Origin: a virus
Taxonomy: Duplodnaviria; Caudoviricetes
Strand: one strand, 5' to 3'
IMG/VR virus record: IMGVR_UViG_3300010398_000018
Location: 1 to 39,924 of that record
Length of the DNA: 39,924 bases
Under the pieces are notes generated by a model that was not told the DNA's origin, did no database searches, and was given only the letters and a program-made list of their open reading frames with translations. The stretch's first letter is position 1. Each line of letters opens with the position of its first letter. Below are positions 2,399 through 38,685 of the stretch, piece after piece. A program made the position numbers and the translations under genes.

Positions 2399-3546
2399 TC
2401 GTGTTGGCTGTGTCGTTTGGCTATGGTGTAAGCCTTGTTATGCATCAGTTGATTGTAGCCGCATTCAGGGCAGAATTTGACATGCTCCAGTTTGTTCTGG
2501 TGAGCAATGACAATGGCTTCCAATTGTTCCAAGGTGAATAGGTGACCAGCAACCGTGATCGCAACCTTCCCGTTTTGATCAACCGGGACTGCCTCGACAG
2601 GTTCCTGTGTTATTAACATCTGCTTTTTGGCGTGTTCCATTTCTTTGATCTTTCCTGCTTTGTTCCCCAAGTGGTGGTAAGGACCACCACCAGTGCGCAC
2701 CCGGGCAGCAAAACTTAAAAACAAACTGCGGGTTTCTTCTGAGTAGTTCAGTTCCTTGGCCCAGTCAGGGTGTTCACTAAAAGCCCAAGTCCAGTTGATC
2801 GACTTTCCTTTTTTCCCGGCGCGATAATTCCCTGACTCGAAAATGGCTTTGCACAAGTCGTATTGTTGTTTGCTCCAGTGCGTCCGTTTGCTTTTGTCAG
2901 GAATCCCTGCGGGTCTTCCGGGTCTGCTCACAGGGCGTGGTCCTTTCAGATCAGCATCGTCAGGAATCCTGCGGTGCTGTTTTCGCAGTTTGGCAATCTC
3001 AGTGTGACTGTGTTTGCCGTAGCGCATTTGATTGATGGCATCATAGAGAGTCTGCTTGGGTTCACCTCTTCCCATCAAAGTCTCTTTCCATTCCGGGTGC
3101 TGCTTCAGACACGACGCAATTCCGTTGTGTTCCATGCGACGGATCATGCCCGGATATTTGGCAATCATATCCAGTGCAGTAAGCCACCCTGCGGGTCTGC
3201 CTGCGTAGCGTTTTTCTATGTTCCGACCCAGCTTGTCAGTGCGCAGGCCGAGAGGGTTTGGTTTGAAGTCTCCTACTTCCTCCCCTGCCATGGCGCGTCG
3301 AGCCAGTTCTGAACGCATGGCTTTTCGATTGGCCGGATGGTTTTGAACCCGGGTGGCTTGCTTCTGTGTATTGTGCGAGTAGCGAACGTGACTGCCCAGT
3401 GCCTGCTGGTTTTTGAAATCGTCTCGACCACAGACGGTGCAGACGAATTTTTTACGGGTCACTAGGGTGGTGGTGGTATCTTGCATAGGTATCTTTTCGG
3501 TTGTGCCATTTAAGGCGTGGTTAACTATTTCGGCAATTTCTGTCAT
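2395..3546 (-). CDS. C2H2 zinc-finger / Zn-ribbon-containing putative DNA-binding protein
   Basis: FVCTVCGRDDFKNQQALGSHVRYSH (C2H2), C-terminal FCPECG, and an RPGRP AT-hook-like motif. Confidence 0.75.
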   Translation of the reverse strand: MTEIAEIVNHALNGTTEKIPMQDTTTTLVTRKKFVCTVCGRDDFKNQQALGSHVRYSHNTQKQATRVQNHPANRKAMRSELARRAMAGEEVGDFKPNPLGLRTDKLGRNIEKRYAGRPAGWLTALDMIAKYPGMIRRMEHNGIASCLKQHPEWKETLMGRGEPKQTLYDAINQMRYGKHSHTEIAKLRKQHRRIPDDADLKGPRPVSRPGRPAGIPDKSKRTHWSKQQYDLCKAIFESGNYRAGKKGKSINWTWAFSEHPDWAKELNYSEETRSLFLSFAARVRTGGGPYHHLGNKAGKIKEMEHAKKQMLITQEPVEAVPVDQNGKVAITVAGHLFTLEQLEAIVIAHQNKLEHVKFCPECGYNQLMHNKAYTIAKRHSQHE

Positions 3547-4351: not shown

Positions 4352-4546
4352 TCACCCTACTTCGAGCAAGCCCCGCTGCTTTTCAGGGGTGGTCACCGGG
4401 ACAATTGCCCACTCAGGCGCAGGGAATTTTTTCTCCATGATGGCAACCTGCAGTGCAGCTTCCTGCACAGTAGGGTAGTGGTAACCGTCCGGCTGGAACC
4501 ACTGCCCCCCATCCAATTCAGTCCAATACTTGATCATGTACTTCAT
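4352..4546 (-). CDS. Hypothetical protein
   Basis: 64-aa ORF preceded by the AGAAAGGTCT leader. Confidence 0.65.
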   Translation of the reverse strand: MKYMIKYWTELDGGQWFQPDGYHYPTVQEAALQVAIMEKKFPAPEWAIVPVTTPEKQRGLLEVG

Positions 4547-4629
4547 TTTTCAGACCTTTCTGTTTTTGCTAGGTTCATCCCAGCTTGCTACCCCGGGGTG
4601 CTGTAACACCCCGGGGCAGATAGCTATGA

Positions 4630-4911
4630 TCAAACTGTTTTGCCACAGGCTTTGCAGGTCATGTTCGCACTAAAAGCAATAACCATTTTGTCAGGCTGTG
4701 CTGCTTGTGGGGCAGGCCAGTTTTTCCACACTGGCACACTCTCACGGGGCAGCAGGATGCCCCTGCCGGACAGCCTGCCGCAGCACACAGTGCAATAGAA
4801 GTGTGCCCCAATTTCAAAACCCCGGAGGTCACCTGCCATCGGCCCGGGTTCTTTGGGGGCATGCTCCAGCCACTGCTTGACGTTGTCCGGGGTGAAGTCT
4901 TGAGCACTCAT
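4630..4911 (-). CDS. Hypothetical Zn-binding protein
   Basis: CTVC...CKACG pairs; coupled to upstream gene. Confidence 0.65.
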   Translation of the reverse strand: MSAQDFTPDNVKQWLEHAPKEPGPMAGDLRGFEIGAHFYCTVCCGRLSGRGILLPRESVPVWKNWPAPQAAQPDKMVIAFSANMTCKACGKTV

Positions 4912-6789: not shown

Positions 6790-7161
6790 TCAGTAGGTCA
6801 CTTGCTTTGTTGGCTGCTTGCAGCCAGACCATCTGTCAGATTGAATTTGAAACAGCCTCTCCAGTTCCATGTGCACGGGGCTGTTTTCGTGCTTTGCAGA
6901 CCATGCATAGTCACAAACCAATTCGCCCGGGCTGTTACCATACACAAGGTAAAGCCCGAATTTTTCGCCACCCTTGGCAATGTAAAGCCTGCTTTCGTCA
7001 CAGGCTGTCAGGTTGTCAATGAATTCCCCCAGCTTGCTAGGGTCAAACTTGAATTGCTCCTCGCCATTATCCCCGGAGCGAATTTCAAAGCCTGCAGCCA
7101 GCAGGTATTCAAGCAAAGTTTTGGTTTCCGGTGTCCAGTCGTTTACTGTCTCAGTGCGCAT
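6790..7161 (-). CDS. Hypothetical protein
   Basis: 123-aa ORF with LVYGN..ELVCDY motif; preceded by the AAGGTCTAATT leader. Confidence 0.7.
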   Translation of the reverse strand: MRTETVNDWTPETKTLLEYLLAAGFEIRSGDNGEEQFKFDPSKLGEFIDNLTACDESRLYIAKGGEKFGLYLVYGNSPGELVCDYAWSAKHENSPVHMELERLFQIQSDRWSGCKQPTKQVTY

Positions 7162-7257
7162 ATAATTAGACCTTGTTTTGATTGTTTCGAGTGTGAGCCT
7201 TAATGGTCACAGGTGACAGCCCGGGTTTTGCCCGGGCTGTTAACCGTGAGCACTGGC

Positions 7258-8022
7258 TTAGGCTGTTGCCATCTGTCGACCGTGCTTTTCTCTGCTGTAA
7301 CCCTTAATCCCTGCAGCTTTCAATTCCTTCATTGCCTCTGCAGCCTCACTTCCTGCTGGCTGGGTGCCATGCAAGAGCAGTGCAAAGCTTTTCCCGGGCT
7401 GCTGTGCGTGCGAGTCATCATGATCAATTTCCAAGCCCAGTTTTTTGGCTTGCCTCTCATTGAATACCACCTGTGCGAACCTTAGCCCGTGCTTTTCGAT
7501 TAGGCTGTCATGCGTACCACCCCGGGAGGCTGTCAGAATCAAATTGCCCGGAATTGTGCTCTTATGTTTGACCCATAGGGGCAAGGCTTTGGTGTAGGCG
7601 TAGAAAGTCACCCCGGGATTATTCCGGGCAACCTCTAACCATGCCAGAAAGTAAACTTCATTGAAAAAATCCCCAGAGACATGGATTCTAATAAAGGGGT
7701 AACCCTCAGGCAAGTATGTTTCCAGCAGGGCTGCAATGGCTTTGACGGTCTTAGCCCGTTTGACTAATTCAAAATTTGTCCACCTGCTATTGCGCACAGA
7801 TTTATTCCACTCTGCAGAGGCTGCAAAGCAGCGGAATTGAGTATGCTTGCCATCCGTTACCTTGCCTGTGATACGGTCGGCCGATGACTTGCACAGCAGT
7901 GCAAATGGGCAAGTGTGCCCAGCAGGTAGGCTAAAGGTTGCAACCTCCTTGCCTAGTTTCGCATTTCCTTCCCCGAAGAATAACTCGGATCCAATTTCGA
8001 TTTGATTGTCATTAGCTATCAT
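7258..8022 (-). CDS. Phage Gp88-like protein (radical-SAM-like fold inferred)
   Basis: GNAKL..FSLPAGHTCP..C..CFA..RIHVSGDFF..FYAYTK..NL.L.AS signature recognised from Gp88-family proteins; start at MIANDNQ. Confidence 0.75.
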   Translation of the reverse strand: MIANDNQIEIGSELFFGEGNAKLGKEVATFSLPAGHTCPFALLCKSSADRITGKVTDGKHTQFRCFAASAEWNKSVRNSRWTNFELVKRAKTVKAIAALLETYLPEGYPFIRIHVSGDFFNEVYFLAWLEVARNNPGVTFYAYTKALPLWVKHKSTIPGNLILTASRGGTHDSLIEKHGLRFAQVVFNERQAKKLGLEIDHDDSHAQQPGKSFALLLHGTQPAGSEAAEAMKELKAAGIKGYSREKHGRQMATA

Positions 8023-8385
8023 GTGAACCTTTGAAGCCCGGGCACCTGTTACAGCAGGCTGTGCATTGTTTTGAAGTGAACCTTTGAGCAGTGCACTTGC
8101 CCGGGCTTTTTTCTGCTCAAAGGGAATTGTTAAACCTAACCTTGCACCCCAGTGCAAAGCTAGGGTTAACAGCCTGCTTGAATGTCAAAGGGCAGGCTAT
8201 GAACCGTGACCATCGGTCACCCTTGCACTTTCGCGTACGCCCCGAGCTATCCCGGGTTGCCAGTTTTTAACTGGGCACTGCGTGACTTTTTCTGGGTGCC
8301 ATGCCACCCCGTAGGGAGCAAAACCACTCGCTAACAAGGTAGCACGTGCAAGTGATACGTGCAATCCGTACTTATACGGATATGA

Positions 8386-8400
8386 TATGATAGTATCACA
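8386..8400. promoter_or_regulatory. Palindromic operator copy 1
   Basis: TATGATAGTATCACA; matches consensus TRTGAT-N3-ATCAYA. Confidence 0.65.
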
Positions 8401-8645
8401 CCCCGTTTTTGCTCTTATACGCCCCTATACGCTTGCCTGTGCTCCCAGTAAAGACTAGTTGACTTAATGCATAACCAGTTGAAACAACAACTAGTTAGAT
8501 GTCTAAAGCCTCAAAAAATGGGTCATCATAGCAGAGAGAAAAGCCGATAGCACCTAGACCCATTTACGCTCCAAATCCGGGCAAGTCACTTTCCAGAAAA
8601 ATGGCTAAAATTGACCATTTTTTAGCCCTGCTTTACCCTGCAGGA

Positions 8646-9050
8646 ATGAAAAAGCTTTTCACGGTTGAAACTGCCCGGGCTGCTGGCTTGAAATCCGTTA
8701 GAGTCAGAGCAGAACGCAAAGCAGCCCTTGCCCTTGCCCCGTTCAATTCCCCAGTTCAAACGGAAGCCCAGCCTGACTTATTTGCTGTCACCCTCGCACA
8801 GGCCTGCAATGAGACTTTAGAAAGGCTAAGACTCTCCAAGGTGCCCTTGGAGCGTGCACAGCTTGCCCGGGCACTGCGTGACCTTAGAGAGACTTGGCAC
8901 CTTGCTACAGGCAAGCCAAAGCCCGGGCAGTTAAAGCCTGCAGAGCAGAGGCTTACACGTAGGGAAATTCCCCGGGTTTTGTACCCAGTATGTAACGGTG
9001 AAACCCCTTTGACCATAAAGCCTTTAGACTCAGAGGCTTGCAAGGGCTAG
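8646..9050 (+). CDS. Putative terminase small subunit / DNA-binding protein
   Basis: N-terminal FTVETARAAGLKS basic motif and helical body; first gene of the rightward unit, followed by a sharp composition change. Function is inferred. Confidence 0.4.
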   Translation: MKKLFTVETARAAGLKSVRVRAERKAALALAPFNSPVQTEAQPDLFAVTLAQACNETLERLRLSKVPLERAQLARALRDLRETWHLATGKPKPGQLKPAEQRLTRREIPRVLYPVCNGETPLTIKPLDSEACKG

Positions 9051-9563
9051 TCATCTCATAACGTATTAGACGGACAGTGCCCTATGGTATCTAAAAGCAT
9101 GCTTTGCAAGGGGTTACGCGAGCAGGGAACCTGCCCGGGCACCCCTTTCGCCCGGGGTGTCGCTCGCGCACACCAGCCCGTGGGAAAATGTGGGTATAGG
9201 AAGGTTTGAGGCATGAGGAGAGGCAAGGTAAAGAGTGAGACGGTGGGGGTGCATCGAGGGAAGGGTGAGGGGTGGCAGGTGATGGTGCCGGGGTGGATGA
9301 TAGACGGGAAGTATTTGGTGGATCGTGGGCCGATTTGTGGTGAGTTTGAGGTAAAGGGTGGGTGGGTGGTGAAGTGTGATTGGGTATTGAGGGAGAGGAT
9401 TGGGAGTTGGTTGATATTTGGGAGGAGGGTTGCTCCGGGTTGTTTCTTGGATTGACTGGTAGTTTTGATTGTCAAGACTGGACTTTGGGGTAGGTAGGTG
9501 AACTGCTACTTGGGTATTACTGAGTAGCAGTTAGTGTGATGCAAGGGAAAGGCATTTAGTAAA

Positions 9564-9755
9564 GTGAAATGGATAACGATAGTGGTGGGTTGCTTGGCGT
9601 GGCTCATCCTGATTGCGAACGGGATTTTACTTGTTCGTTTGAGGAGGCAATTGAGGGAGGGGTGGAAGAGGCTGGAGGAGATTGAGGCGACCAAGGCAGC
9701 GTGTGAAGGGTTGAAGGTGGAGATGCAGAAGACTCTGGAGGCAATGCGGCAGTGA
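9564..9755 (+). CDS. Membrane-anchored coiled-coil small protein
   Basis: N-terminal TM segment followed by a coiled coil. Confidence 0.6.
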   Translation: MKWITIVVGCLAWLILIANGILLVRLRRQLREGWKRLEEIEATKAACEGLKVEMQKTLEAMRQ

Positions 9756-10069
9756 TCTGGCTGGCACAATTATTATGTCCGGCGAGGCACTGTATGGTGG
9801 GGGCACCGTTTGACCGGGAGTATGCGCCCTCCGACGAGCAGTTATGGGAGTGGACCAAGCCCTTGTTTGAGGAGATGGGAGTGAGGTATCGGTGTGGGAT
9901 TTGTGGATCTACGAGTCTGCACTGGGAGGTAGGGGCGATGCCGGGGTTGACGATGGGGGAGGCGATGAAGCAATTGAAAGAGGAGGAGCTAAAGCAGATG
10001 GTGACGCGCATTTGGCTGGACCTTCAGGGAACCACACACGACATCAAAGAGCAGAGGAGGAGGAATTGA
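9752..10069 (+). CDS. Hypothetical Zn-binding protein
   Basis: LCPARHC...CGICGS. Confidence 0.65.
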   Translation: MIWLAQLLCPARHCMVGAPFDREYAPSDEQLWEWTKPLFEEMGVRYRCGICGSTSLHWEVGAMPGLTMGEAMKQLKEEELKQMVTRIWLDLQGTTHDIKEQRRRN

Positions 10070-10071
10070 GC

Positions 10072-10347
10072 ATGCACATGCCAGTGACCTATGTGTCGCA
10101 GATTGTCGCCATGGCTGGGAATGGCCGGGAGTGGGTGAAGGACCATCCCGGGGTGGATGTGAAGGTGCAGTTTAATTTTACCAGCCGAGTGTTTTTGATT
10201 CAGCCGATCAGTGAGGCGGTAAAGATGCGGATGGTCAGTTGCAATCAGGCGGGAGAGGAATTGTTGCAAGCGATGTGGTCATGGGAGGCAGTGGATGAGC
10301 CGACAGTGATGATGTGCAAGATGGCATTGGAGGCGATGGGAATATAA
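10072..10347 (+). CDS. Hypothetical protein
   Basis: Start reassigned to MHMPVTY after a GAGGAGGAGG SD. Confidence 0.6.
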   Translation: MHMPVTYVSQIVAMAGNGREWVKDHPGVDVKVQFNFTSRVFLIQPISEAVKMRMVSCNQAGEELLQAMWSWEAVDEPTVMMCKMALEAMGI

Positions 10348-10351
10348 TCTT

Positions 10352-10582
10352 ATGGACGCTTATTTGTGCATTGTGAAATGGCCGGACGGGACCGAGGGGT
10401 TGCTTTTTCCCAGACCGGGGAACGTGCCGATTGCTGACACGCTGGGCAAGGGGATGAGTGACTTTGCCGTGGCGAAGGCGCATCTGCAGGAGTATGTCAA
10501 CGGCAAGCCCGACTTTCATGGAACCCAGGTTCGGCTGGTGATGTTTGGTGAAGTAGAGACGTTAACCCAGTTTGTGGCATGA
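10352..10582 (+). CDS. Hypothetical protein
   Basis: Tightly packed operon ORF. Confidence 0.6.
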   Translation: MDAYLCIVKWPDGTEGLLFPRPGNVPIADTLGKGMSDFAVAKAHLQEYVNGKPDFHGTQVRLVMFGEVETLTQFVA

Positions 10583-10767
10583 ACATTGATGAATTTGAAA
10601 TCGCCTTGCATAAGCTGATTAGTTTGGCGATCAAGGATACCACCTGCACCGGGGAATACATGGCGATTCTTGGGGCACTGAGCAATGCACAGTACAAGAT
10701 GAATGCGGCATTTGAAGCCGGGACCATGGAGGCTGCTCACAAGATCATAGCAAGGAAAAGAACATGA
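10579..10767 (+). CDS. Hypothetical protein
   Basis: ATGA overlaps on both sides. Confidence 0.6.
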   Translation: MNIDEFEIALHKLISLAIKDTTCTGEYMAILGALSNAQYKMNAAFEAGTMEAAHKIIARKRT

Positions 10768-11063
10768 TTGAAGGATTGCAGGTAACTCTAGGGGCAGAGG
10801 AGTTGAAGGTGCTCTGCCGGAAACAAGCGGAGGCGCATGCTGCCCGGGCCAAGCAGTATGAGGAGAGTCTGTCGACCTTGGAGTCGCTGGATTCGCCGCA
10901 TAAGAGCAGCAGGCCGGGAGATGAAGCCAAGGAGACGATTGCCCGTCACCTGCATCAGGCAGCGGAACTGGAATTTATTGCTGACCATTTGGACGCCAAG
11001 GAAACGTATCTGTTGAGCGACTCGGATTTGCGAAAGTTAGGAGTCGCTTACCGTGGATACTAA
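10764..11063 (+). CDS. Hypothetical protein
   Basis: Coupled ORF, helical. Confidence 0.7.
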   Translation: MIEGLQVTLGAEELKVLCRKQAEAHAARAKQYEESLSTLESLDSPHKSSRPGDEAKETIARHLHQAAELEFIADHLDAKETYLLSDSDLRKLGVAYRGY

Positions 11064-11358
11064 TGAACTGATTGACCGGATCACCAAGGAATGGGCCAAC
11101 CGTGGGCTGGTGATCGAAGGTGGGTGGCAGGCTTTCCGGCTGACAGCCATTCCCAAGAACGCGCACGAGATTCAGCTACGGGAAATGAAGGTGGCTTACT
11201 ACGCTGGGTGCCAGCATCTGTTTGCCTGCATGATGTCAACGCTGGATGAACAGGAGGAGCCGACCCCGGAGGATTTGAGGCGCGTGGAATTAATCCACAA
11301 GGAATTGGATCGGTGGGTCAATGAATTGAAGAGAGCAAGAGAGGCGAAGGGCAACTAG
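11053..11358 (+). CDS. Hypothetical conserved phage protein
   Basis: IP..A..IQ.REMK.AYYAG motif typical of small phage proteins. Confidence 0.7.
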   Translation: MDTNELIDRITKEWANRGLVIEGGWQAFRLTAIPKNAHEIQLREMKVAYYAGCQHLFACMMSTLDEQEEPTPEDLRRVELIHKELDRWVNELKRAREAKGN

Positions 11359-11822
11359 TGAGCAAGGCACACCAATTGATTAAGCGCATGAGGCATAAGC
11401 TGGCGTGGAACCGCCGGGACTCCACTGCGGTGCGCCTGATGCGATTCAGTTGGAATGGGAACCAGAAGTGGTTCTTCAACTGGGCATGTGACGAGTGGAG
11501 GGATTCGTGGGCACAGCAGGATGAACACATCGAGACGAAGGTATCCCTGCTCACGCTGATGGCTGTGCCTGTCTCCTGCCGCCGAGTGGTGGAGCACTTT
11601 GGCGTGATGAAGATTATTGGCTTTTTGAAACCGACCCTGTTGGACAAGCGCAACGACTATGAACTGTATCAGTTCCCGTTGGGGATGGTGTTCCTCAAGA
11701 TGAAGAATCCCTCGACCAAGGAACTGCATTTGGAAGCAGTAGACCCCAGCCGAGTGGAAGTGCGTGAGGCACTCTACTGGCGAAATCTTGGATGGTTCGT
11801 AACTGCAGACAGACTAACATAG
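11358..11822 (+). CDS. DUF6745-like protein
   Basis: C-terminal FLKMKNPST.ELH.EAVDP....V.EAL.WR signature, recalled from this family. Confidence 0.6.
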   Translation: MSKAHQLIKRMRHKLAWNRRDSTAVRLMRFSWNGNQKWFFNWACDEWRDSWAQQDEHIETKVSLLTLMAVPVSCRRVVEHFGVMKIIGFLKPTLLDKRNDYELYQFPLGMVFLKMKNPSTKELHLEAVDPSRVEVREALYWRNLGWFVTADRLT

Positions 11823-11847
11823 AAACAAAGAAAGGTAAGAAACCAAA

Positions 11848-12162
11848 ATGAAACAGTTGAACATTCAACAGGGGGACGTTCTTTTGCGTCCCGTAAACGT
11901 ACTCTCGACTCAGGGGTATCCCCGGGTGACCGGGAGGCTGGTGATCCATCAGGGTGAACACGGGGGTCACGCTCATGTGATCGAGGATGACGAGGCGGAA
12001 CTGGTGATGATTGGACACCGGATGCTGCTCAATCTGGGCAAGGCGGCAACCATGGTCCACGAGGAGCACAAGTCGGTGGAGGTTCCGGCTGGCACCTACG
12101 ATGTGGGTCAGGTGCAGGCGCAGGACTACGCTGCCCAGACCAAAAGCGTGGTGGAAGATTAG
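11848..12162 (+). CDS. Conserved QGDV/His-rich beta protein (usual partner of DUF6745-like genes)
   Basis: QQGDVLLRPV...GEHGGHAH...VHEEH..V.VPAGTY.V..Q.Y. Confidence 0.75.
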   Translation: MKQLNIQQGDVLLRPVNVLSTQGYPRVTGRLVIHQGEHGGHAHVIEDDEAELVMIGHRMLLNLGKAATMVHEEHKSVEVPAGTYDVGQVQAQDYAAQTKSVVED

Positions 12163-12213
12163 TATGATGTCATCATATTTCGGGGTTGACAGTCTGTTGA
12201 GTCTCGCTAGCCT
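12163..12213 (+). promoter_or_regulatory. Operator copy 2 plus sigma70-like promoter
   Basis: TATGATGTCATCATA (12163-12177), then TTGACA (12186)-N16-TAGCCT (12208). Confidence 0.7.
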
Positions 12214-12217
12214 GCGA

Positions 12218-12895
12218 GAATGGCTTGCAATAGTGGTAAACAATTTGGCGACTTCGGTGCCAATCGAACGTCGTCATCACTGAGCAAGCCGTTCAGTTTC
12301 CCAGCCTCGCAAGAGGCTGGGATGATTTCCTGCGGGTCGAAGAGAATGGGTTACCATGCGAAACGGAACATCCCATCTCGAACCTTATCTGCAGGAGTTT
12401 GTTTCCGGTGCCGTGGCAAGGATGGTAAAGCAACAGAATTGCGCAAAGTTCCTGCGGCACCGGTGTCTTTGCACCCATCCGATACTATCCACCATGGGCT
12501 AGGTATCTCCCATGGCAGGATGGGTGCAATTGGTATTTCACCTGCCCCTCTCTTAACAACACGTTTGTTGTTTCTACTTGCATACGGGGGCAGGTGTTCA
12601 TCCCCCCGGCAGTGTCTGACCCCCTTCGTGCCGTGCACAGTGCACGACCAGCACTGCCGGACCTTTTTCCCAGCCGATTTCCTCTCTTTGGAAAGTGCTG
12701 GCAGTTGTATGCCCTTGAACTGTGGAAAACCAAGGCTTGCCAGCAGTCAGGCGTGAGAGACTGCAAAACGCGCCAGTCATGGGATTGGAGCAATCAGTTG
12801 GGCGCGTGGTAGAGAAATTCAACTGAGGGTTCCCCTCTCGTCGCAGTCCCTGCCGTTGTTGCTCCGCAGGGGGAGGGGGGTTATGCAGGGGTCAG
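12218..12895 (+). ncRNA. Candidate large structured non-coding RNA (about 9-10 consecutive hairpins)
   Basis: Successive stems at 12218-12294, 12299-12322, 12328-12396, 12405-12463, 12469-12529, 12539-12596, 12606-12660, 12696-12745 and 12768-12807. G-U wobbles read on the + strand, with cUUCGg and GCAA loops. Begins at the predicted +1. Confidence 0.7.
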
Positions 12896-12903
12896 GAAGA
12901 CAG

Positions 12904-13257
12904 ATGATGAAGTGGTCATTAATTTTTCTTTTGTTTTGTAGTGGCTGTATCACCACCCAGTCAGGGCCAGGTCCGGTCCCTCTGCCCACGGGTTTGCCTC
13001 CTTCGCTGCACCTGCCACTGACTCCTCATCCACGAGTGGCAACTATTAATCCGAGAGAAATTAATACCAGATTGATAGTTCATGATTTGAGGTTTGAGTA
13101 TCCCAGCAATGAGTGTGTCATTCGCTGGACTCTGCAGAGCAGCACTAACCTGATGGACTGGGTGGATCTGCAACCGTATGGGATTGGGTGCCCGACCAAT
13201 TTCACCACGGTCACCAACACGGGCAACTGTTTCTATCGACTCAAAGGTTCACTATGA
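12904..13257 (+). CDS. Lipoprotein with Verrucomicrobia-type C-terminal motif
   Basis: MMKWSLIFLLFCSG-C signal/lipobox; C-terminal WTLQSSTNLMDW...NCFYRLK. Confidence 0.7.
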   Translation: MMKWSLIFLLFCSGCITTQSGPGPVPLPTGLPPSLHLPLTPHPRVATINPREINTRLIVHDLRFEYPSNECVIRWTLQSSTNLMDWVDLQPYGIGCPTNFTTVTNTGNCFYRLKGSL

Positions 13258-13769
13258 AGTGGGAAGATGTTTGTGTTGGCAATCCACAGGAAGGTTCTCA
13301 AGGTTGGCCTGTGGTGTTGACTCCGATGGAGGTTTGGTTAGGTGTGATAATTGGTGTGCGTCAGCGCATCACCTCTCTGTGCAACGGGTATAAGGACCGT
13401 CACGGGTTGGATCAGAAAAAGGTATTCGATGCGTGGATGCATAATTTCACTGGAGCATTTGGGGAGATTGCTTTCTGCAAGACAATGGGACTGCCGTGGA
13501 ACTGTGGACCGACTCGTCGTCAGAGCAAGAAGGTGCCCGATGTGCCGCCGAACTGGCAGGTGCGTTGTCGTTCACAGCACAATTGGGATTTGCTGGTCAG
13601 GGAAGATGACCGGGACCAATTCAAATTTGCACTCATCACTGGACTGGTGCCGAATTTCTTTTACCACGGTTGGATGTGGGGAGGAGCCTGCAAACGTCCA
13701 GAATGGAAGCACCCTTACGGCAACCGGGAAGAGGCTTACTTTGTTCCACAAGGGGAACTGACGATTTAA
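13254..13769 (+). CDS. Hypothetical phage protein, possible restriction-endonuclease-like fold
   Basis: GAFGEIAFCK...PDV...QVR..LLVREDD pattern; the catalytic E/K positions are non-canonical. Confidence 0.6.
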   Translation: MKWEDVCVGNPQEGSQGWPVVLTPMEVWLGVIIGVRQRITSLCNGYKDRHGLDQKKVFDAWMHNFTGAFGEIAFCKTMGLPWNCGPTRRQSKKVPDVPPNWQVRCRSQHNWDLLVREDDRDQFKFALITGLVPNFFYHGWMWGGACKRPEWKHPYGNREEAYFVPQGELTI

Positions 13770-15511
13770 AAATCATCAAGCTCTTCAGGACCATAATGCA
13801 CGTTGGCGAAAACCTCTTGGCACTGAGTGACCATGTCTTCAAAGTCCTGATACCGGGAAACGGTTTCGCCCTGCGGGATCAAACGCAGTCCCCGGAGGCG
13901 AGCCATCTCGCAGACCAGTACTCCACTGTCGGCAAAGTCAGGACTGCGGCGAAACTTTTTGCGATAATCTTTTTTGCTCTGCAGTTTTATGCGGCGGGAA
14001 GAATCGTCAAATTCAAGGGTGCACAATTCGACGGCAGTCTCCCGGTCAATGCCCCGAAGCTGTCCGTGGTTGAGCATGTCCCGGGCACGGAAATACATTT
14101 CGACCCGTTTGTTCTCGAACACCTCGCAGGCCGGACGAATATCCTCCAATGACGCCGCATCTTCAGAAGCAGCCGCAGAAAACATCACCCGTTGAATCCT
14201 TGCTGAGACGGTCCTTTGCAGGATATCTGCGAACCCTGCGCCTTCGCCTGTGGCATCGACTGCGAGGTTTTCAAAGGGACAGTGGTAGTCAATGTTGCGA
14301 TGGACAAAATGCTCACAGTGGAGGCGCACCTGTTCCGACAATTGGAAATCTATCGGCACCGTCGATGCCGCCGATACCGAAAGAACTATTGGTCCCATCC
14401 ATTCCACAGCCAGCTTCCCATCAGGGAGCAAACCCAGCTTGGCAAACCGGAGCGTCGGTCTGTCCCCCCCGTTGCGAGCATGATCAAAACCGCCGAGGAT
14501 TTGAAATGCCTCCCCACTGAATTCAAATGAAGAGAAACCGTTCTGCGAAGCAATTGCCGACTCCGAAAAAACTGTCTTACAAATTCCTTCTGGGGGAGGA
14601 AATCCACGAAAGTTTGACCACCATAATGGGGTCTGCCCTCCAGCAGCTTGCTTTCGTGCTTCGACGGTATGAGGAAGAGGCAGGTGTCGTGAGACAATTC
14701 GACCCTCTGTTATGTTCGGAGATTTCTCAGCGTCGAAACGGATCACAAGTGGAATTGCTCCTCCGTATTCGTGTTGAGGCTTGCCTTCCCATTCCTCGTC
14801 ATCAACCGTCACCGAGGTCCACCCCTCCAGTGGCTCGATGAATTTGGAAAACTGATCGAGTCGATTGCGTGGGTTACCCATCACGACCATCAGGAATTCT
14901 TCCGGGTAGGAAAATAAATTCGAGCAGGCATCGAAGATGGCTTCCGGCACACTGGTTGCCTCATCGATGATCACCATTTGTCGGCGTGTGTGAATGCCCT
15001 TGATGTCGTCAGCCACCTTGGTGATGGAACCTTCCTCGACTGCCTTGCCGAAGATGGCGTGGCGAGCGTCCCCATAAACGCAATTCCAGATCATGCGCGA
15101 GTCGGTGAAGGTGCCTCGCAGTTCTTCCGGCGCATTGGCAAAGCAGCGTGAGATTTCAGCCCATGCCCGTTTGCGAAGCGACTCCTTGGAGGTGGAAACC
15201 AGAATGACCGACGACTCGGTGGGGTCGCACAGCCACCAGATGGCAGCGAAATTGGAGACGTTGTAGGTCTTGGCACTTCCAGCGCAGCCGGGGATCCCAA
15301 TCAAGGTCCGGTTGCAAACGGCATAGAGAAGTCGGTTGGTCCACTCGTGATACTCAAAGTGCCCGGGGAGGATGGATTCAGCCACCCGTTTGAAAAGGTC
15401 CACCCTCGGTGGCACCCCGGCATCCGGCGGCAGGCGCATGGAAAAGGCACGTTGATCATACTCGTGCTGCTCAAAGCCGGGAGGAAGACCGTAGCTGTTA
15501 ACGTGTTCCAC
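13766..15511 (-). CDS. terL: Terminase large subunit
   Basis: Walker A variant GCAGSAKT, Walker B VIIDEA, motif III MGNP, nuclease GFDHARNGGD, AVDATG, and C-terminal SPDFADS. Confidence 0.9.
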   Translation of the reverse strand: MEHVNSYGLPPGFEQHEYDQRAFSMRLPPDAGVPPRVDLFKRVAESILPGHFEYHEWTNRLLYAVCNRTLIGIPGCAGSAKTYNVSNFAAIWWLCDPTESSVILVSTSKESLRKRAWAEISRCFANAPEELRGTFTDSRMIWNCVYGDARHAIFGKAVEEGSITKVADDIKGIHTRRQMVIIDEATSVPEAIFDACSNLFSYPEEFLMVVMGNPRNRLDQFSKFIEPLEGWTSVTVDDEEWEGKPQHEYGGAIPLVIRFDAEKSPNITEGRIVSRHLPLPHTVEARKQAAGGQTPLWWSNFRGFPPPEGICKTVFSESAIASQNGFSSFEFSGEAFQILGGFDHARNGGDRPTLRFAKLGLLPDGKLAVEWMGPIVLSVSAASTVPIDFQLSEQVRLHCEHFVHRNIDYHCPFENLAVDATGEGAGFADILQRTVSARIQRVMFSAAASEDAASLEDIRPACEVFENKRVEMYFRARDMLNHGQLRGIDRETAVELCTLEFDDSSRRIKLQSKKDYRKKFRRSPDFADSGVLVCEMARLRGLRLIPQGETVSRYQDFEDMVTQCQEVFANVHYGPEELDDF

Positions 15512-15525
15512 GTGGAACCTCTTGA

Positions 15526-15579
15526 TATGATAACATCACACTTTTCTCATTGACGATATCGGGCATTCGGGTGTAGAGG
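15526..15579 (+). promoter_or_regulatory. Operator copy 3 in the divergent terL / tail-fibre intergenic region, with possible promoter
   Basis: TATGATAACATCACA (15526-15540); TTGACG (15550)-N18-TAGAGG. Confidence 0.6.
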
Positions 15580-31760: not shown

Positions 31761-31910
31761 ATGACTGATTTGGGCACAGAAACTAATCCCAACTCTGCAC
31801 CCTCAGACCCGACGACTTCTGCCAACGAGTCGCTTGAAGAAATCGGGAATGGGTCTGTGCCCTGTCAACCGATGGACCTGTTGCGCATGCGCGAGGAGGA
31901 TTTGGAGTGA
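31761..31910 (+). CDS. Acidic 49-aa peptide (not in ORF track)
   Basis: GAGGAGGAGG SD; MTDLGTETNPNSAPSDPTTSANESLEEIGNGSVPCQPMDLLRMREEDLE*; its TGA overlaps the GTG start of the ATP-grasp gene. Confidence 0.5.
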   Translation: MTDLGTETNPNSAPSDPTTSANESLEEIGNGSVPCQPMDLLRMREEDLE

Positions 31911-33208
31911 AGAGCACAAACGAAGTGACTTTCTGCGTGGTGGACCGGGGCACGTTCTTTCCGGTGGCTGACCGACTGGCGCGAAACAACAAGGTCTATT
32001 ATTACTCGCCCAGTGGGGATGGATTTGAAACGGTGGCAAAGGATGCGTTGGGGCATGGATATCCCGGGGTGGAAACCATTCGTGATTTCTGGCCGATCAA
32101 AAGTCAGATCGATTGCTTTGTATTCCCTGATTGCCGGGACTGGGGACTGCAGCAGGAACTGGTGTCACAGGGTTTTCCGGTCTGGGGCAGCAGGCGAGGC
32201 GAGGAACTGGAGGGGCTGCGTGGCGTGTGGCTTGATGTGGCAAAGGAGATTGGCCTGCCGATGCCGCATACCGAAGTGATCGTTGGGCTGGAAGGGGCAC
32301 GGCAATACCTCTCTGACTTTCGGGAGAAAAAGAAGCACATCAAAATCAGTCGCTACCGTGGCGACATGGAAACGTGGTGTGCTGACGATTGGACCCGGAC
32401 CCGGACCAAACTCGATGCGCTGGCGCACAAGTGGGGACCGCAGCAGGACAAACTCATTTTCTACATTCAGCAGGATTTGGACACTGACATTGAAGGTGGT
32501 GGCGACAGTTACAACATCGATGGTGATTTTCCTGACGAGGTTTTGTTGGGCTACGAGGCGAAGAGCAAAGCCTATTTCGGTGCTGTGATGGCTCGCACCG
32601 AGGTGCCACCGGAGATCTGGAAACCCAGTGAACTGGTGGCACCAATTCTGGCAGCGCACGGTTATCGTAATTTCTTCACCACCGAAGTGCGTGTGGTGAA
32701 TGGGAAAAGTTATCTGCTGGATCCCTGCTGTCGGTGCCCCAGTCCAGCCGGGGAATCCCAATTGGAGATGTATAGCAACTATGCCGACATCATCTACTAC
32801 GGTGCCCGTGGCGTGTTGATTCAGCCGGAATGGACAGCAAAATATTGTGGGCAGGTGGCGATGGACTGGACTGGCGACAAGGACTCGGCTGCGTCCATTC
32901 GGGTGCCGGAAAAGGTAAGCCAGTGGGTGAAGCTTCCGGCCTGTTGCTATAGTGACGGTGCCTATCATTTCCCGCCGACCCCGGACATGGACATGGGCTG
33001 GGTGGTCGGCATCGGAGACACTCCCACCGAGGTGCTGAACCACATTCTGGAAGTGAATAGCGAATTAAAGGACCAGCCACTGCACCTGCATCTGGAACGA
33101 CTGGTGGATTTGATCGGTGAAATCAATGAAGCCCGGGAGCAGGGGATGGAGTTTGGGCAAGGGCACCAGATGCCGCAGCCCGCAGCAGTGCTTGACACGG
33201 ATTCCTGA
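31907..33208 (+). CDS. ATP-grasp ligase (PurD/GARS-like)
   Basis: G.PVWG...EELE..R, IGLPMP, HIK, YIQQ, IEGG, GYRNFFTTEVRV..YLLDPCCRCPSP (PurD-like C-terminal ATP-grasp motif). Confidence 0.75.
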   Translation: MKSTNEVTFCVVDRGTFFPVADRLARNNKVYYYSPSGDGFETVAKDALGHGYPGVETIRDFWPIKSQIDCFVFPDCRDWGLQQELVSQGFPVWGSRRGEELEGLRGVWLDVAKEIGLPMPHTEVIVGLEGARQYLSDFREKKKHIKISRYRGDMETWCADDWTRTRTKLDALAHKWGPQQDKLIFYIQQDLDTDIEGGGDSYNIDGDFPDEVLLGYEAKSKAYFGAVMARTEVPPEIWKPSELVAPILAAHGYRNFFTTEVRVVNGKSYLLDPCCRCPSPAGESQLEMYSNYADIIYYGARGVLIQPEWTAKYCGQVAMDWTGDKDSAASIRVPEKVSQWVKLPACCYSDGAYHFPPTPDMDMGWVVGIGDTPTEVLNHILEVNSELKDQPLHLHLERLVDLIGEINEAREQGMEFGQGHQMPQPAAVLDTDS

Positions 33209-33209
33209 G

Positions 33210-33224
33210 TATGATGTTATCATA
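33210..33224. promoter_or_regulatory. Operator copy 4
   Basis: TATGATGTTATCATA. Confidence 0.65.
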
Positions 33225-33226
33225 CC

Positions 33227-33424
33227 ATGCTGCGAACCACAGACTTTACGTATCCCAATCCACCGAATGATATTCCTCTCGGTCCATTTGCTTTGCCTTG
33301 GCCGAGAAAACCTCTGTCCGGCAAACCGAAGGGACCATCACGCCAGCCACATACTAAGCCCAGCAAATCCGGGCTGGATAAATTTCTGAAGAAACGGGTA
33401 ACCCACCCCGACCCCTTCTTTTAA
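33227..33424 (+). CDS. Small Pro/Lys-rich protein
   Basis: 65-aa ORF filling the gap between the ATP-grasp and glycosyltransferase genes. Confidence 0.45.
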   Translation: MLRTTDFTYPNPPNDIPLGPFALPWPRKPLSGKPKGPSRQPHTKPSKSGLDKFLKKRVTHPDPFF

Positions 33425-33434
33425 GAGTGTAACA

Positions 33435-34346
33435 ATGCAGGTTACGCTTTGTTACCTGACCAGTCGTCAGGACTGCAAGATGCAGTGGTGGTGGGATTCT
33501 CTCCTGTTGCAGCTACAACCCGACGATGAAATTCATGTGGTCATGGTGGACTTCTGGGCCAAAGAACGACCCTATTGTGCCGATGGTTCCCCTCCTCAAA
33601 TCAAATCCTTCCAACAGGTCCAGCCAAAGCCCAATGTTTGGCAGGGTGATCATCGGCTTACGAAAGAAAATTGGTTCGCTGCTGCGAATGCTCGCAACAC
33701 TGCTCTGTGCCTTTGTCCTAGTGACTGGATTGCTTACAGTGATGACCTTAGCGTTCTTGCTCCTACTTGGCTTGAAGCTGTTCGCAGATCCATTCGAGGC
33801 AATTACATCGCACTGGGTGCCTACAAAAAGGTGCGCAACCTCGTCGTTGAAAAAGGCCGAGTAGTTTCCTGTGAGGAATTTGCCGGTGGGCTGGATTCAC
33901 GCCTGCGCCACGTAGGGGAGGTTGTCTCCTGCGGTGGCGACTGGATGTATGGGTGTTCGGTGGCTGGGCCGACAGAAGCCTTCCTCTCGGTCAACGGTTG
34001 GCCCGAGGCGAACGACGGACTCTCCTTTGAAGATGTGTGCATGGGCATCTGCATCGGCAACACCAACAAGTTTTCGTTCAGGTATGATAAAACGATGCTG
34101 ACTCTGGAGAGTGAGGAGGACCACTACAAAGAGAAGCCGATGATTCGATCCGATTTCGGCATCAGCCCGAAGGACAAGTCTCATGCCGCATTGAATATCG
34201 CCAAGCAGTCCGTCTGGTTCCCGAACTACTTTGGCGAGGAGGGCATCCGTGGGTTACGCCAACGGGTGCTTCACGGTGAACCATTCCCGATTTGTCAGAT
34301 CCCTGACCGGGAGTGGTTCACCAAAAAACTTCTGAGCGAATTATGA
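33435..34346 (+). CDS. Glycosyltransferase, GT-A fold (GT2-like)
   Basis: VVMVD, AANARNTAL, WIAYSDD, VNGWPE, SFED motifs. Confidence 0.85.
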   Translation: MQVTLCYLTSRQDCKMQWWWDSLLLQLQPDDEIHVVMVDFWAKERPYCADGSPPQIKSFQQVQPKPNVWQGDHRLTKENWFAAANARNTALCLCPSDWIAYSDDLSVLAPTWLEAVRRSIRGNYIALGAYKKVRNLVVEKGRVVSCEEFAGGLDSRLRHVGEVVSCGGDWMYGCSVAGPTEAFLSVNGWPEANDGLSFEDVCMGICIGNTNKFSFRYDKTMLTLESEEDHYKEKPMIRSDFGISPKDKSHAALNIAKQSVWFPNYFGEEGIRGLRQRVLHGEPFPICQIPDREWFTKKLLSEL

Positions 34347-34903
34347 TTCCACTTTGGGTATCTGAAGGCTCAGTAAAACCGTTTGGTTTTCCCATGAGCC
34401 AGAATCGCCTGTCGCCAACGATCTGGTCGTATGCGATGGAGGTCTATCCACCGACGCGCGTCCTTGATTTGGGTTGCTATAACGGTGGCTTCACAATTCT
34501 GCTGGGACTGCATGCGTGGCACCTCGGTGCCACGGTGTTTGGTTTTGATCGGATGGCAGCACCCAGTGAGGACTGGGCCAATCTGGCGAAGGTTCTTGGT
34601 GTCGAATTTGTTCAAGGCGATATCCTGCAGGGACTCTCCGAAACCATTATCCGTCTGATCGAGAAACCCGGGATCACCTACGTGCTTTGCGACAACGGCA
34701 AAAAGAGTTTGGAGTTTTCCATATTCGCGCAGCACCTGAAGCCCGGGGATATCATCGGTGCTCACGACTACTTCAATGCCGTCTACTGGCCTTGGACGGA
34801 AATCACACAGGAGGCAGTGGCTGAACCTGTCGCCAGATACGGACTGGAACCTTGGATGCAAGAGCACTTCGATTTAGCCGGATGGTTGGTTTACAAAAAA
34901 TGA
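34343..34903 (+). CDS. Class I SAM methyltransferase (CmcI/O-methyltransferase-like)
   Basis: VLDLGCYNGGFT, LCDNGKK, LKPGDIIGAHD. Confidence 0.85.
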   Translation: MIPLWVSEGSVKPFGFPMSQNRLSPTIWSYAMEVYPPTRVLDLGCYNGGFTILLGLHAWHLGATVFGFDRMAAPSEDWANLAKVLGVEFVQGDILQGLSETIIRLIEKPGITYVLCDNGKKSLEFSIFAQHLKPGDIIGAHDYFNAVYWPWTEITQEAVAEPVARYGLEPWMQEHFDLAGWLVYKK

Positions 34904-35529
34904 TCACCGAAAAACTCAAACACGAAATCAAGGACATGCTCTCGCTGGACCGCAGGCCAATCATCGAGGGCTGGACGACACAGGAAAAGGCCGAGGTGCT
35001 GGCTGGACTCATTCTCGATCACAAACCGCAGGTGCTGGTCGAGGTCGGTGTGTTCGGTGGACGCAGTGTGTTCGCCATGGCGTTTGCTTTGCGCGAAAAC
35101 GGAATGGGCACTGTAACCGGGATTGACCCGTGGAGTCTGGATGCCGTGCTGGAAGGCGAAATCGGGGACGAGAATCGTAAGTGGTGGACGGAAAATGTGA
35201 ACCTGCAAACGATCTACGAAGGGTTCGTCCGGGGGGTGCTCGAATTCCAACTGCTCAAACAGATTCGCTGGGTGCGCGAGAAGGGAGTAGTCGCCTGCAA
35301 AATGTTTCCAGACAAGTCAATTGACCTGTTGCATCTGGATGCCAACCACAGTGAGGAGGCTTCCTGCGGCGAGGTCGATCACTGGCACAAGAAGGTGAAG
35401 CCCGGAGGCTTTTTGGTGGCTGACGATGTGGATTGGACCACGGTTGCCAAGTCGCTAAAAAAGATTCGGGACTTGGGCTACAAACCAGTCACCGAAACAA
35501 AACAGTTTGCCGTGTTCCAGAAACCGTGA
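34900..35529 (+). CDS. Class I SAM methyltransferase (Methyltransf_24-like)
   Basis: VEVGVFGGRS, GIDPW, IDLLHLDANH, VKPGGFLVADD. Confidence 0.9.
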   Translation: MITEKLKHEIKDMLSLDRRPIIEGWTTQEKAEVLAGLILDHKPQVLVEVGVFGGRSVFAMAFALRENGMGTVTGIDPWSLDAVLEGEIGDENRKWWTENVNLQTIYEGFVRGVLEFQLLKQIRWVREKGVVACKMFPDKSIDLLHLDANHSEEASCGEVDHWHKKVKPGGFLVADDVDWTTVAKSLKKIRDLGYKPVTETKQFAVFQKP

Positions 35530-36512
35530 TTGCTGTTGATCCACCGATTGCTGTTAACGACAAGGTGCCTTCGATCTTGCAACAGACCGATTGGGAGTGT
35601 GGCATCTTCGACTTCCGCAGAGGCGAGCATCCCCAGACGGACTACTTCAACTGCGGTCTGGTGAGCAGGCCGGATGGGAACTGGTTGATGGTGCGACGGT
35701 CAGTGTGGAAGGACCGACTGATATTCGGGATGAACGACATTGTTGCGTTCCGGCTGGGTGGTCCCAACGGGTTGGTGCCGCAGATTGGCTACAAGGTCCG
35801 GTTCCTCAACACCAACACCAATGAGCAGTACGAGGATCCCCGGGTCATTTATCACAACGGCAAAACCTACGTGGCTTGCTGCAACTTCGTTTGGTATCGC
35901 ATCAAGAAGTGGACAGGGGCGCATCAGATTCTGGTGGTGTGCGATGACAAGTGGGATGTGAAGCAGCGGTTCGATCCACTCTATGGCAAGAATGGCAAGG
36001 GGCTGGGGCTGAACACGGGGCACGAGAAAAACTGGTTGTGGTTTTTCCACGACGACAAACTGCAATTGCTTTATGAAGCCCAGCCTCACACGGTGGTCGA
36101 GTTTGACTCTTACGTGCGCGTGGTTACGGTGCGCCGAACCGAAAGGAAACTGCCGTGGGCCTATGGCGAGATACGTGGTGGAACACCACCATTCCGAGTG
36201 GGATCAGAATATTTCACCTTCTTTCATTCTTCACTGCCATGGACAGCCAAATTCCGTCGTTACTTCATGGGGGCATATGCATTTGAAGCCCGTCCCCCAT
36301 TTTCAGTCACTCGAATTACACAGGAACCATTGCTCATCGGTAGCCAGCACGACTACTGGGTGGATAAAAAACCTTTAGTGGTATTCCCCTGTGGGTCACT
36401 GCTGCGCGACAATAGCTGGCTGGTCACACTGGGAGTCAACGATCTGAAGTGTGGCTGGATTGACATTCCTCACAAAGATTTGTTAAAGAGGATGACATGG
36501 CTAGGGGCATGA
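35526..36512 (+). CDS. Five-bladed beta-propeller glycosidase/phosphorylase-like protein (GH130/GH43-DUF377-like)
   Basis: YFNCGL, EDPRV, EKNW.WF, RGGTPP, FFHS, VVFPCG, LGVND motifs. Confidence 0.8.
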   Translation: MIAVDPPIAVNDKVPSILQQTDWECGIFDFRRGEHPQTDYFNCGLVSRPDGNWLMVRRSVWKDRLIFGMNDIVAFRLGGPNGLVPQIGYKVRFLNTNTNEQYEDPRVIYHNGKTYVACCNFVWYRIKKWTGAHQILVVCDDKWDVKQRFDPLYGKNGKGLGLNTGHEKNWLWFFHDDKLQLLYEAQPHTVVEFDSYVRVVTVRRTERKLPWAYGEIRGGTPPFRVGSEYFTFFHSSLPWTAKFRRYFMGAYAFEARPPFSVTRITQEPLLIGSQHDYWVDKKPLVVFPCGSLLRDNSWLVTLGVNDLKCGWIDIPHKDLLKRMTWLGA

Positions 36513-37422: not shown

Positions 37423-38685
37423 ATGGCAGCAGCAGTAGCACCTCCGATTGAAGCAAACGAAAACCCAGCGGGATCAAAAGAGGAAGTCAATTTCCGACAG
37501 GGAAGCTTATCAAAGTGGATGGCTGGACTCAAAGAGGCACTGCCGAATCCAGCACTTGGACAAGGAGGCGAGCCGGATCCAGATCAGGAAACTGAACCAC
37601 CTGCTGATACTCCAGCCACACCAGCCGAAAAGCCAGCCACACCTCCTGCGCCTGCAACGACACCTCCAACTAAACCTGCGGAAGCACCAAGTAAGCCTGC
37701 CGACGCTGCCCAACCCGCAGCCGAAGAGCGTTGGCCGAGGTCGGCCAAGGAGTGGAAAAACTTCACCCAATCACGAAAAGCCAAGGATGAACAATATGAA
37801 AAAACGATTGCAGACCGGGATGCCAAAATTAAAGACCTTGAAAGCAAAGCGTCCCAACCTGTCAGCCCGGAAGTCCAAAAAGAAATCGAGATACTGAGGA
37901 AGGAGAATGACGATTTCTCCAAGCAATTGCGACTGGTCGCAGTCACCAATCATCCACGGTTCCGCAGTTATTTCGAGAGCAAGACCAATGCGGCATTGTC
38001 CCAGCTAAGAGGCTGCGTTCCGGCAGAGAGGCTGGACACGGTCACCAAGCTTGTGCAGCAGCCGGACTCCGATGCCAAGAACGATCAGATCAACGAATTG
38101 TTGGGGGAATTGACTCCGGTGCAGCAGGGGAGGCTGTTCGGGGTCATCAATAACCTTTCTGCCATTCAGGCTGAGAAGGATTCTGAAATCGAACGGGCAC
38201 GAACGGACTATGACCAGATGATGGCACAGTCCAAAGCCCAGCAGGAACAGCAGAGGGCTGGGTTTACCAAGCTGCTGGATGACACCGTCAAATTGATGCA
38301 GGATGCCAAGGGGGGCAGGCCGGAATATCAGATGCGTGATGGGGAGGTCGAGTGGAACCAGTCCGTGCAAAGGCGCATCGACGCTGGGAAGGCTCTTATA
38401 GCAGGCAATCTTGCGCCGGAAGTGATGTTTAAAGCAGCCTTTGATGCCGCAGCCTACCCAGATGTGCTGGTTGGCTACCGGACGGCACTGGCCGAGGTGG
38501 AGAAGCTGCAGAAGCAGATTGCTGCGATGAGTGCAGCCAACCCGAGGATTGAACCTCAGAGGCGAGCCGAAACGTCCGGCACCGGGACCGAACCGCCGAT
38601 GCCCAAGGATATGCGTCCCATGGACTGGACCAAAAACTGGGTGAAGAAATTTGGTGAAGCCATGCGTGGCGAACAATCTTCCTGA
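37423..38685 (+). CDS. Capsid scaffolding protein
   Basis: Pro/Ala/Glu-rich N-terminus and coiled coils; directly upstream of the capsid gene. Confidence 0.7.
   Translation: MAAAVAPPIEANENPAGSKEEVNFRQGSLSKWMAGLKEALPNPALGQGGEPDPDQETEPPADTPATPAEKPATPPAPATTPPTKPAEAPSKPADAAQPAAEERWPRSAKEWKNFTQSRKAKDEQYEKTIADRDAKIKDLESKASQPVSPEVQKEIEILRKENDDFSKQLRLVAVTNHPRFRSYFESKTNAALSQLRGCVPAERLDTVTKLVQQPDSDAKNDQINELLGELTPVQQGRLFGVINNLSAIQAEKDSEIERARTDYDQMMAQSKAQQEQQRAGFTKLLDDTVKLMQDAKGGRPEYQMRDGEVEWNQSVQRRIDAGKALIAGNLAPEVMFKAAFDAAAYPDVLVGYRTALAEVEKLQKQIAAMSAANPRIEPQRRAETSGTGTEPPMPKDMRPMDWTKNWVKKFGEAMRGEQSS

Follow-up and report, generated by a model that had tools for sequence, protein, structure and literature searches.

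The window, that is, the whole stretch of DNA that was analysed, corresponds to the entire IMG/VR record IMGVR_UViG_3300010398_000018 (39,924 bp), a soil phage with an estimated completeness of 74%. Among its genes are those for an integrase and, on the minus strand, a large terminase (13766–15511); there is also a long structural block. The terminase falls in a tight clade (80–87% identity) surrounded by a wide halo of relatives at 50–60%; identity with terminases of cultured phages is ~23% at most, and no prophage with a related terminase was found in the terminase scan of genomes. Several terminase relatives (P0045, P0048, P0059, P0068, P0076, P0089, P0090 and P0108) are 760–930 aa long and give intein-type Pfam hits. 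The terminase gene is inverted with respect to the structural block, the two having a divergent promoter region in common (operator at 15526), and the same orientation is found in contigs L001 and L004–L006 and in phage G007, considered below. Predicted modification enzymes (ATP-grasp-like by eye, glycosyltransferase-like, methyltransferase-like and GH130-like) are clustered at 31907–36512, inside the structural region, which suggests glycosylation of the virion or of DNA.

The biggest gap in the gene list (741 nt) separates two plus-strand genes: upstream, a gene for a 104-aa QGDV-type phage protein (11848–12162; PHROG 27831, function not assigned) and, downstream, a gene for a predicted lipoprotein (12904–13257). 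GC skew drops from 0.15–0.35 in these flanking genes to 0.02–0.04 inside the gap. The nearest Atlas cluster of the lipoprotein gene carries mostly Verrucomicrobiota labels (score 0.88), a lead, and only a lead, to Verrucomicrobiota as the possible host group. Another large gap (9050–9750, ~700 nt) shows a jump in GC skew to 0.4–0.5 and G/T-rich low-complexity sequence; CCCGGG sites are frequent to its left and the gene just before it (8601–9050) is 53% conserved in L006. It is possibly an origin or a genome-end/packaging junction.

The 741-nt gap opens with a 15-bp operator-like palindrome (12163–12177), followed by a predicted plus-strand promoter (12186–12213). The original prediction had given the latter as TTGACA-N16-TAGCCT: the perfect −35 hexamer and the 16-nt spacer stand, but the −10 element is weak and the site is absent from the consensus promoter scan list. 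An operator belonging to the RNA itself had also been proposed; the palindrome is indeed there, but it is a genome-wide site, not specific to the RNA, with 9 matches in the window versus 1 expected. Six of the nine are intergenic. Promoters across the genome are marked by it (8386, 12163, 15526, 33210, 37370 and 38749), among them those before terL/15607, 33435, the scaffold-like gene at 37423 and the gene after 38749. At 12163, 15526, 37370 and 38749 a TTGAC hexamer begins 1–9 nt after the palindrome, with a weak −10 at each. The palindrome recurs in four contigs with 81–84% identical terminases (L004, positions 2112 and 4295; L005, 466 and 2649; L006, 3346, 5825 and 6614; L007, 1733); L004 and L007 each have one copy placed after a −35 hexamer and ahead of the −10 region, the position expected of a repressor operator. 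On this evidence the promoter of the RNA appears to belong to a clade-wide regulon that includes structural genes and, because the palindrome recurs before structural genes, expression of the RNA is probably lytic. The shared operator would thus link the RNA to the structural-gene programme, which provides a prediction of timing.

Hairpin chain and coding potential

The predicted RNA is ~680 nt long (12218–12896, plus strand), its ends being placed by the promoter and by the last helix. Its variable 5′ domain (12218–12596, plus strand) consists of six independent, very stable hairpins, H1–H6, of which H1 carries a UUCG loop and H2 a GNRA loop. All the stems of the original prediction were recovered at their positions, the outer ones being 12218/12294 (11 bp), 12299/12322 (10 bp), 12328/12396 (8 bp), 12405/12463 (12 bp), 12469/12529 (12 bp), 12539/12596 (11 bp), 12606/12660 (9–10 bp), 12696/12745 (9 bp) and 12768/12807 (7 bp). 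Units 3–7, described as 55–69 nt long, measure 69, 59, 61, 58 and 55 nt; linkers of 5–9 nt were found at the five junctions between units 2 and 7, while the one after unit 1 has 4 nt. The units have no sequence in common, and the 20 largest repeat families of 7000–14000 include none made of such units.

When folding was compared with that of dinucleotide shuffles, as originally suggested, the region outdid all 20 shuffles whichever strand was taken (z = −5.25 and −5.20). The signal sits on the 5′ side, since 12218–12600 gives z = −10.2 and 12601–12896 only −0.7 with a nested model. Nine non-overlapping stems of at least 9 bp are packed within 700 nt; among the other scanned loci, only L122, a tandem-repeat coding region, has more (12). 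Elsewhere in the phage, strong local folds (z from −4.7 to −7.1; 150-nt windows, scan of 1–31650) occur at 901–1050, 4501–4650, 7126–7275 and 8026–8175, mostly gene boundaries of the left arm. G-U pairs in the outer stems had been read as a sign of selection at the RNA level. This argument is weak: the stems were defined on the plus strand, the two strands give an equal z, and a better fold on the plus strand is seen for only 5 of the 8 units. The strand is better fixed by the promoter, by the loops of UUCG and GNRA type and by the promoter of the homologue described below than by the G-U pairs.

Complementarity between the interiors and linkers of the 5′ hairpins is at chance level (six-base matches, 5 versus 5.1 expected; seven-base matches, 1 versus 1.3), and the loop match once proposed between 12351 and 12422 is of this kind. 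Palindromes in the window copy are likewise at chance level (9 six-mers versus 10.5 expected). H1–H6 have no counterpart in G007 or in any other searched locus. They are real, stable hairpins, and tertiary contacts among them are without comparative support.

The interval had been said to hold no credible ORF. This holds only in part: a 178-aa ORF (12220–12756) covers much of the region, but no true homologue of it was found among 1.84 billion representatives, the only matches being the ORF itself and a chance match to a repeat protein. In the ungapped block aligned with L103, the homologous locus of G007, every one of the six frames has 1–2 synonymous changes of codon versus 7 that are non-synonymous, and the alignment contains frame-shifting gaps. 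Because of the lack of homologues, the non-synonymous excess and these gaps, we regard the region as non-coding. A protein gene, or DNA-level palindromes with no role as RNA, would agree with an ORF that begins at the predicted transcription start and with folding scores equal on both strands; set against the same three observations, and against the pseudoknot covariation and G-U-preserving changes described below, this explanation is largely refuted and hardly credible.

Homologue in phage G007 and core anatomy

A total of 130 loci was gathered by scanning with two proteins, the terminase and the QGDV-type protein encoded upstream. Among these, and blindly, L103 was found to match 12697–12833 of the window (blastn, E = 1e-5; nhmmer, E = 3.7e-5), and a covariance model built from the window alone scored it at 60.4 bits (E = 4e-15), the stretch with a homologue being 12696–12865 of the window. 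G007 is a complete 77-kb phage that has in common with the window its terminase (46%), a portal-like protein (55%), a scaffold-like protein and others. Two genes upstream of the RNA are shared by the two phages, whereas the downstream genes are not; the G007 homologue of the QGDV-type protein (48%) lies ~1.9 kb upstream of that phage's RNA copy. The copy sits in a gene gap, 130 nt behind a promoter with 11 of 12 consensus positions, at a place matching that of the window. The RNA predicted there (~3146–3535 of L103) is ~390 nt long and starts with one small hairpin followed by an H7-like hairpin, so that the 5′ addition amounts to one small hairpin in G007 versus six hairpins before H7 in the window. 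Nested folding of the whole L103 copy is no better than that of shuffles (z = −0.4).

The part that is conserved (~12696–12865) forms a set of interlocked elements on the plus strand. Domain 1 (12699–12742) comprises two stacked stems, an invariant 6-nt internal loop and a 13-nt terminal loop; 37 of 45 positions are identical to L103, as are 11 of the 13 in the terminal loop, which we take to be of T-loop type. The adjoining hairpin Pc (12743–12764) has 3 of its 5 pairs changed on both sides, and its loop keeps a UGAGA-type motif that fits the T-loop pattern only in the window copy. An H-type pseudoknot follows (12769–12826), made of stem A (12769–12774/12801–12806) and stem C (12794–12800/12820–12826); in both phages it lacks a loop 2 and has a purine-rich loop 3 of 13 nt. 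Stem C corresponds to the loop match 12794/12820 of the original prediction, which is thus backed by covariation. The long-range helix D (12787–12793 with 12859–12865; 12787–12865 overall), which the original prediction lacked, has seven Watson-Crick pairs in both phages, three of them changed on both sides, and joins the only variable bases of loop 1 to a segment 66–80 nt downstream. The chance of finding such a downstream partner is 0.006 (window) and 0.02 (L103) for D, and 0.002 and 0.09 for C. A small TTG/CAA hairpin present in models R2 and R3 was superseded by helix D.

Two further elements complete the core: a small hairpin, E (12827–12836), and a possible helix B (12781–12786 with 12845–12850; 12781–12850 overall), whose 5′ strand is invariant and whose partner strand lies before the 3′ strand of D (D′) in the window and after it in L103. 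Helix B is the weakest of the core helices. Upstream of the core, the pyrimidine-rich interior of hairpin H7 (12606–12660, plus strand) can pair with the G-rich 3′ tail that follows D′ (12866–12896, plus strand), and the hairpin at the corresponding position of G007 (3191–3254 of L103) has the same possibility. This duplex, which is suggestive only (P = 0.17 in the window and 0.014 in L103), includes the originally proposed match 12616/12888, for which there is a counterpart in the homologue by position but none by sequence; another proposed match, 12580/12707, has no perfect counterpart there. Alternative pairings exist in both copies. In L103, a 90-nt insertion in the 3′ part of the core (3410–3500) offers the H7-like hairpin another partner over 10 bp (3197–3206 with 3431–3440), a possible switch.

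Over 46 homologous pairs, 28 are identical in the window and L103, 12 show double changes, 5 compatible single changes and 1 is broken; this covariation comes from two sequences only and hence carries no phylogeny-aware statistic. The 27 pairs of the model itself contain 6 double changes versus 0–1 with slid partners, and versus 7/500 shuffles, a figure which, with two sequences, is not a probability. Helix C had been predicted before any homologue was available; the choice of D, B and E, like that of the registers of Pb and Pc, was made with both sequences in view. Taken from these two sequences, the predicted core fold is conserved, multiply pseudoknotted and common to two distant phages. 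We consider the existence of a functional structured RNA core very probable.

The original prediction had offered two readings of the locus: a new large structured non-coding RNA or an array processed into small RNAs. The first is supported by the covarying homologue, the absence of an Rfam family and the non-coding pattern of substitutions, except that the part which is conserved, and probably functional, is the 3′ core and that the hairpin chain is missing from the homologue. The second, in which RNAs of ~60 nt would be released by processing, could draw on five hairpins of 55–69 nt joined by short single-stranded linkers, but it is very unlikely given that the units have no common sequence, that the homologue has no array and that the conserved part is one interlocked fold.

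Distribution and possible modes of action

Two members of the family were found, one in the window and one in G007. Core pattern scans of viral contigs yielded 1, 7 and 25 loci, of which that of G007 was the only true one, the others reaching at most 17.6 bits and having only the searched motif in common; a similar scan of 185,579 bacterial and archaeal genomes gave 5 loci, none of them a full match. The RNA-model search was positive in 1 of 98 other viral records, many of which are distant, and in 1 of the 26 that are at least 90% complete. When both strands of 49 sequences (1.74 Mb) were scanned with a structure descriptor, the two known copies were the only places where the pseudoknot was accompanied by close matches to both core motifs, and blastn against cultured phages and plasmids gave short matches at chance level only. 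A weak match in L094 (E = 0.1), which falls within a gene of 700 aa, was discarded before model R3 was built. In L006, ORFs fill the interval that runs from the homologue of the 8601 gene to that of the lipoprotein gene, and no RNA match is present there. Because this contig, with an 83% identical terminase, is without the RNA at the same place, the RNA is accessory.

We consider that there is an even chance that the locus encodes a stand-alone large RNA, transcribed with the lytic genes and acting in trans. It would serve as a folded scaffold or as a decoy, which is what has been proposed for GOLLD and ROOL. The promoter behind the operator would fire with the structural-gene regulon, transcription starting presumably near 12218. 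The 3′ core (the T-loop hairpin, Pc, the pseudoknot A/C with its A-rich loop 3, helix D and probably B and the H7-tail duplex) would fold into a compact tertiary unit, and this unit would be the selected, functional part. The 5′ hairpins would be an optional, lineage-specific addition protecting or displaying the core, like the separate variable 5′ domain of GOLLD. In the least certain step, some of the long-range helices would form between copies to give an oligomer, which might bind or sequester a host RNA or protein during infection, with the exposed T-loop as a candidate docking site; no signs of oligomerisation were seen in the palindromes or the 5′ loop-loop matches, both at chance level. 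More speculatively, and this we find doubtful, the small pseudoknotted core with paired T-loops might dock on the elbows of host tRNAs or ribosomes, or self-assemble into a cage, while the extendable 5′ hairpins would serve as a multivalent binding rack. This would be a new class of modular phage RNA, equipping soil phages with an RNA-only means of taking over the host late in infection.

Action in trans is favoured by the fact that both copies lie behind a TTGACA promoter and before unrelated genes. The main rival is a cis-acting leader, riboswitch-like or an attenuator, in which the core would sense a ligand, a tRNA or a protein and control translation of, or read-through into, the genes behind. 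No intrinsic terminator was found after either copy, in the window or in G007, and, in the window, a start codon follows 8 nt past the predicted end of the RNA, so that a leader fits these features equally well. Moreover, the last helix (12615–12623/12888–12896) reaches the probable ribosome-binding site for the next gene, at 12904, both copies have alternative pairings, and an H-type pseudoknot with invariant loop bases and a loop 3 rich in A is a typical feature of RNAs that bind ligands. On the other hand, the downstream genes are unrelated between the two phages and not metabolic, L006 manages the same lipoprotein gene with no such element, the core of the window is preceded by 480 nt of additional hairpins, and no riboswitch of Rfam is matched. 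On balance, we hold control in cis to be possible but rather unlikely.

The patchy occurrence of this accessory RNA (found in 1 of 98 other viral records) and its location in a variable cluster of small genes also bring to mind an anti-defence decoy. Such a pseudoknot RNA would imitate an antitoxin of the host, or the ligand of a sensor, and so disarm a defence based on RNA sensing or on a toxin-antitoxin pair; pseudoknots are also the form taken by type III antitoxins (PMC4627078; PMC5772629). The core, at ~170 nt, is far larger than these, the tandem repeats of type III antitoxins are lacking and no defence gene is linked to the locus, all of which makes such a decoy unlikely. A catalytic or self-processing RNA, either a new ribozyme class or an intron remnant, is quite improbable: the nesting of several pseudoknots and the invariance of loop bases speak for it, but Rfam provides no ribozyme or intron match and the element, rather than being inserted in a gene, has its own predicted promoter.

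If a stand-alone RNA with a docking core and a hairpin rack proves true, the minimal 390-nt version of G007 would make the function of large ornate phage RNAs, a long-standing question, directly testable. The two natural versions (~680 and ~390 nt) already separate the core from the additions and define concrete constructs.

Comparison with known RNAs

A check against Rfam 15, which had been called for originally, gave no family at gathering level for the window, the region, the homologue or G007/G023. The best match, flg-Rhizobiales, has 20.4 bits versus a gathering threshold of 55 and is not found in the homologue. No match was obtained with the riboswitch, ribozyme, intron, T-box and RNase P models, and none with tmRNA. 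At E ≤ 10, neither the window phage nor G007 matched the models of GOLLD (RF02032, gathering 150 bits) and MISL (RF03079, 751 positions, gathering 274.6 bits); the ROOL model (RF03087, gathering 99.1 bits) gave no match either, in a targeted search that was without any positive-control signal. No published description of this RNA was found, and the supplements of the screens of Weinberg 2017 and Fremin 2023 (PMC10690425) could hold one.

The known RNAs that come closest resemble it in different respects. The loops of its two adjoining core hairpins, one clearly of T-loop type and one of UGAGA type, recall the double T-loop platform of T-box Stem I and RNase P as presented in PMC12990946, whereas a specifier loop, an antiterminator and an Rfam match are absent here. 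MISL RNAs are similar in length to the present RNA; they consist mostly of independent hairpins and belong to Verrucomicrobia, the host group weakly suggested here. ROOL, as outlined in PMC5737381, has intertwined 5′ and 3′ parts and multistem junctions. The size class (~600 nt), several pseudoknots and a phage context are likenesses to it, but in the present RNA the 5′ part forms a detachable chain, not intertwined with the 3′ part.

Large, intricate RNAs are rare in bacteria and phages, and the few known classes, GOLLD, ROOL and OLE, form assemblies made only of RNA, with an as yet open function. GOLLD and ROOL are homo-oligomeric cages of RNA alone, with high expression that rises on lysis; they also usually have tRNA neighbours, whereas ARAGORN finds 0 tRNAs in the window and in G007. 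GOLLD, in the account of bioRxiv 10.1101/2024.12.08.627333, has a conserved pseudoknotted 3′ region and a variable 5′ region forming a separate domain. The RNA described here differs from it by its smaller core and by the absence of any sequence or model match; it resembles it, so far as that account goes, as a large phage-borne RNA of open function with a conserved pseudoknotted 3′ part and a variable 5′ part (here from two sequences), a patchy distribution and probable lytic expression. The comparison thus points to an uncatalogued family of large phage RNAs from an uncultured phage group, unrelated to GOLLD in sequence and GOLLD-like in plan, with a putative function.
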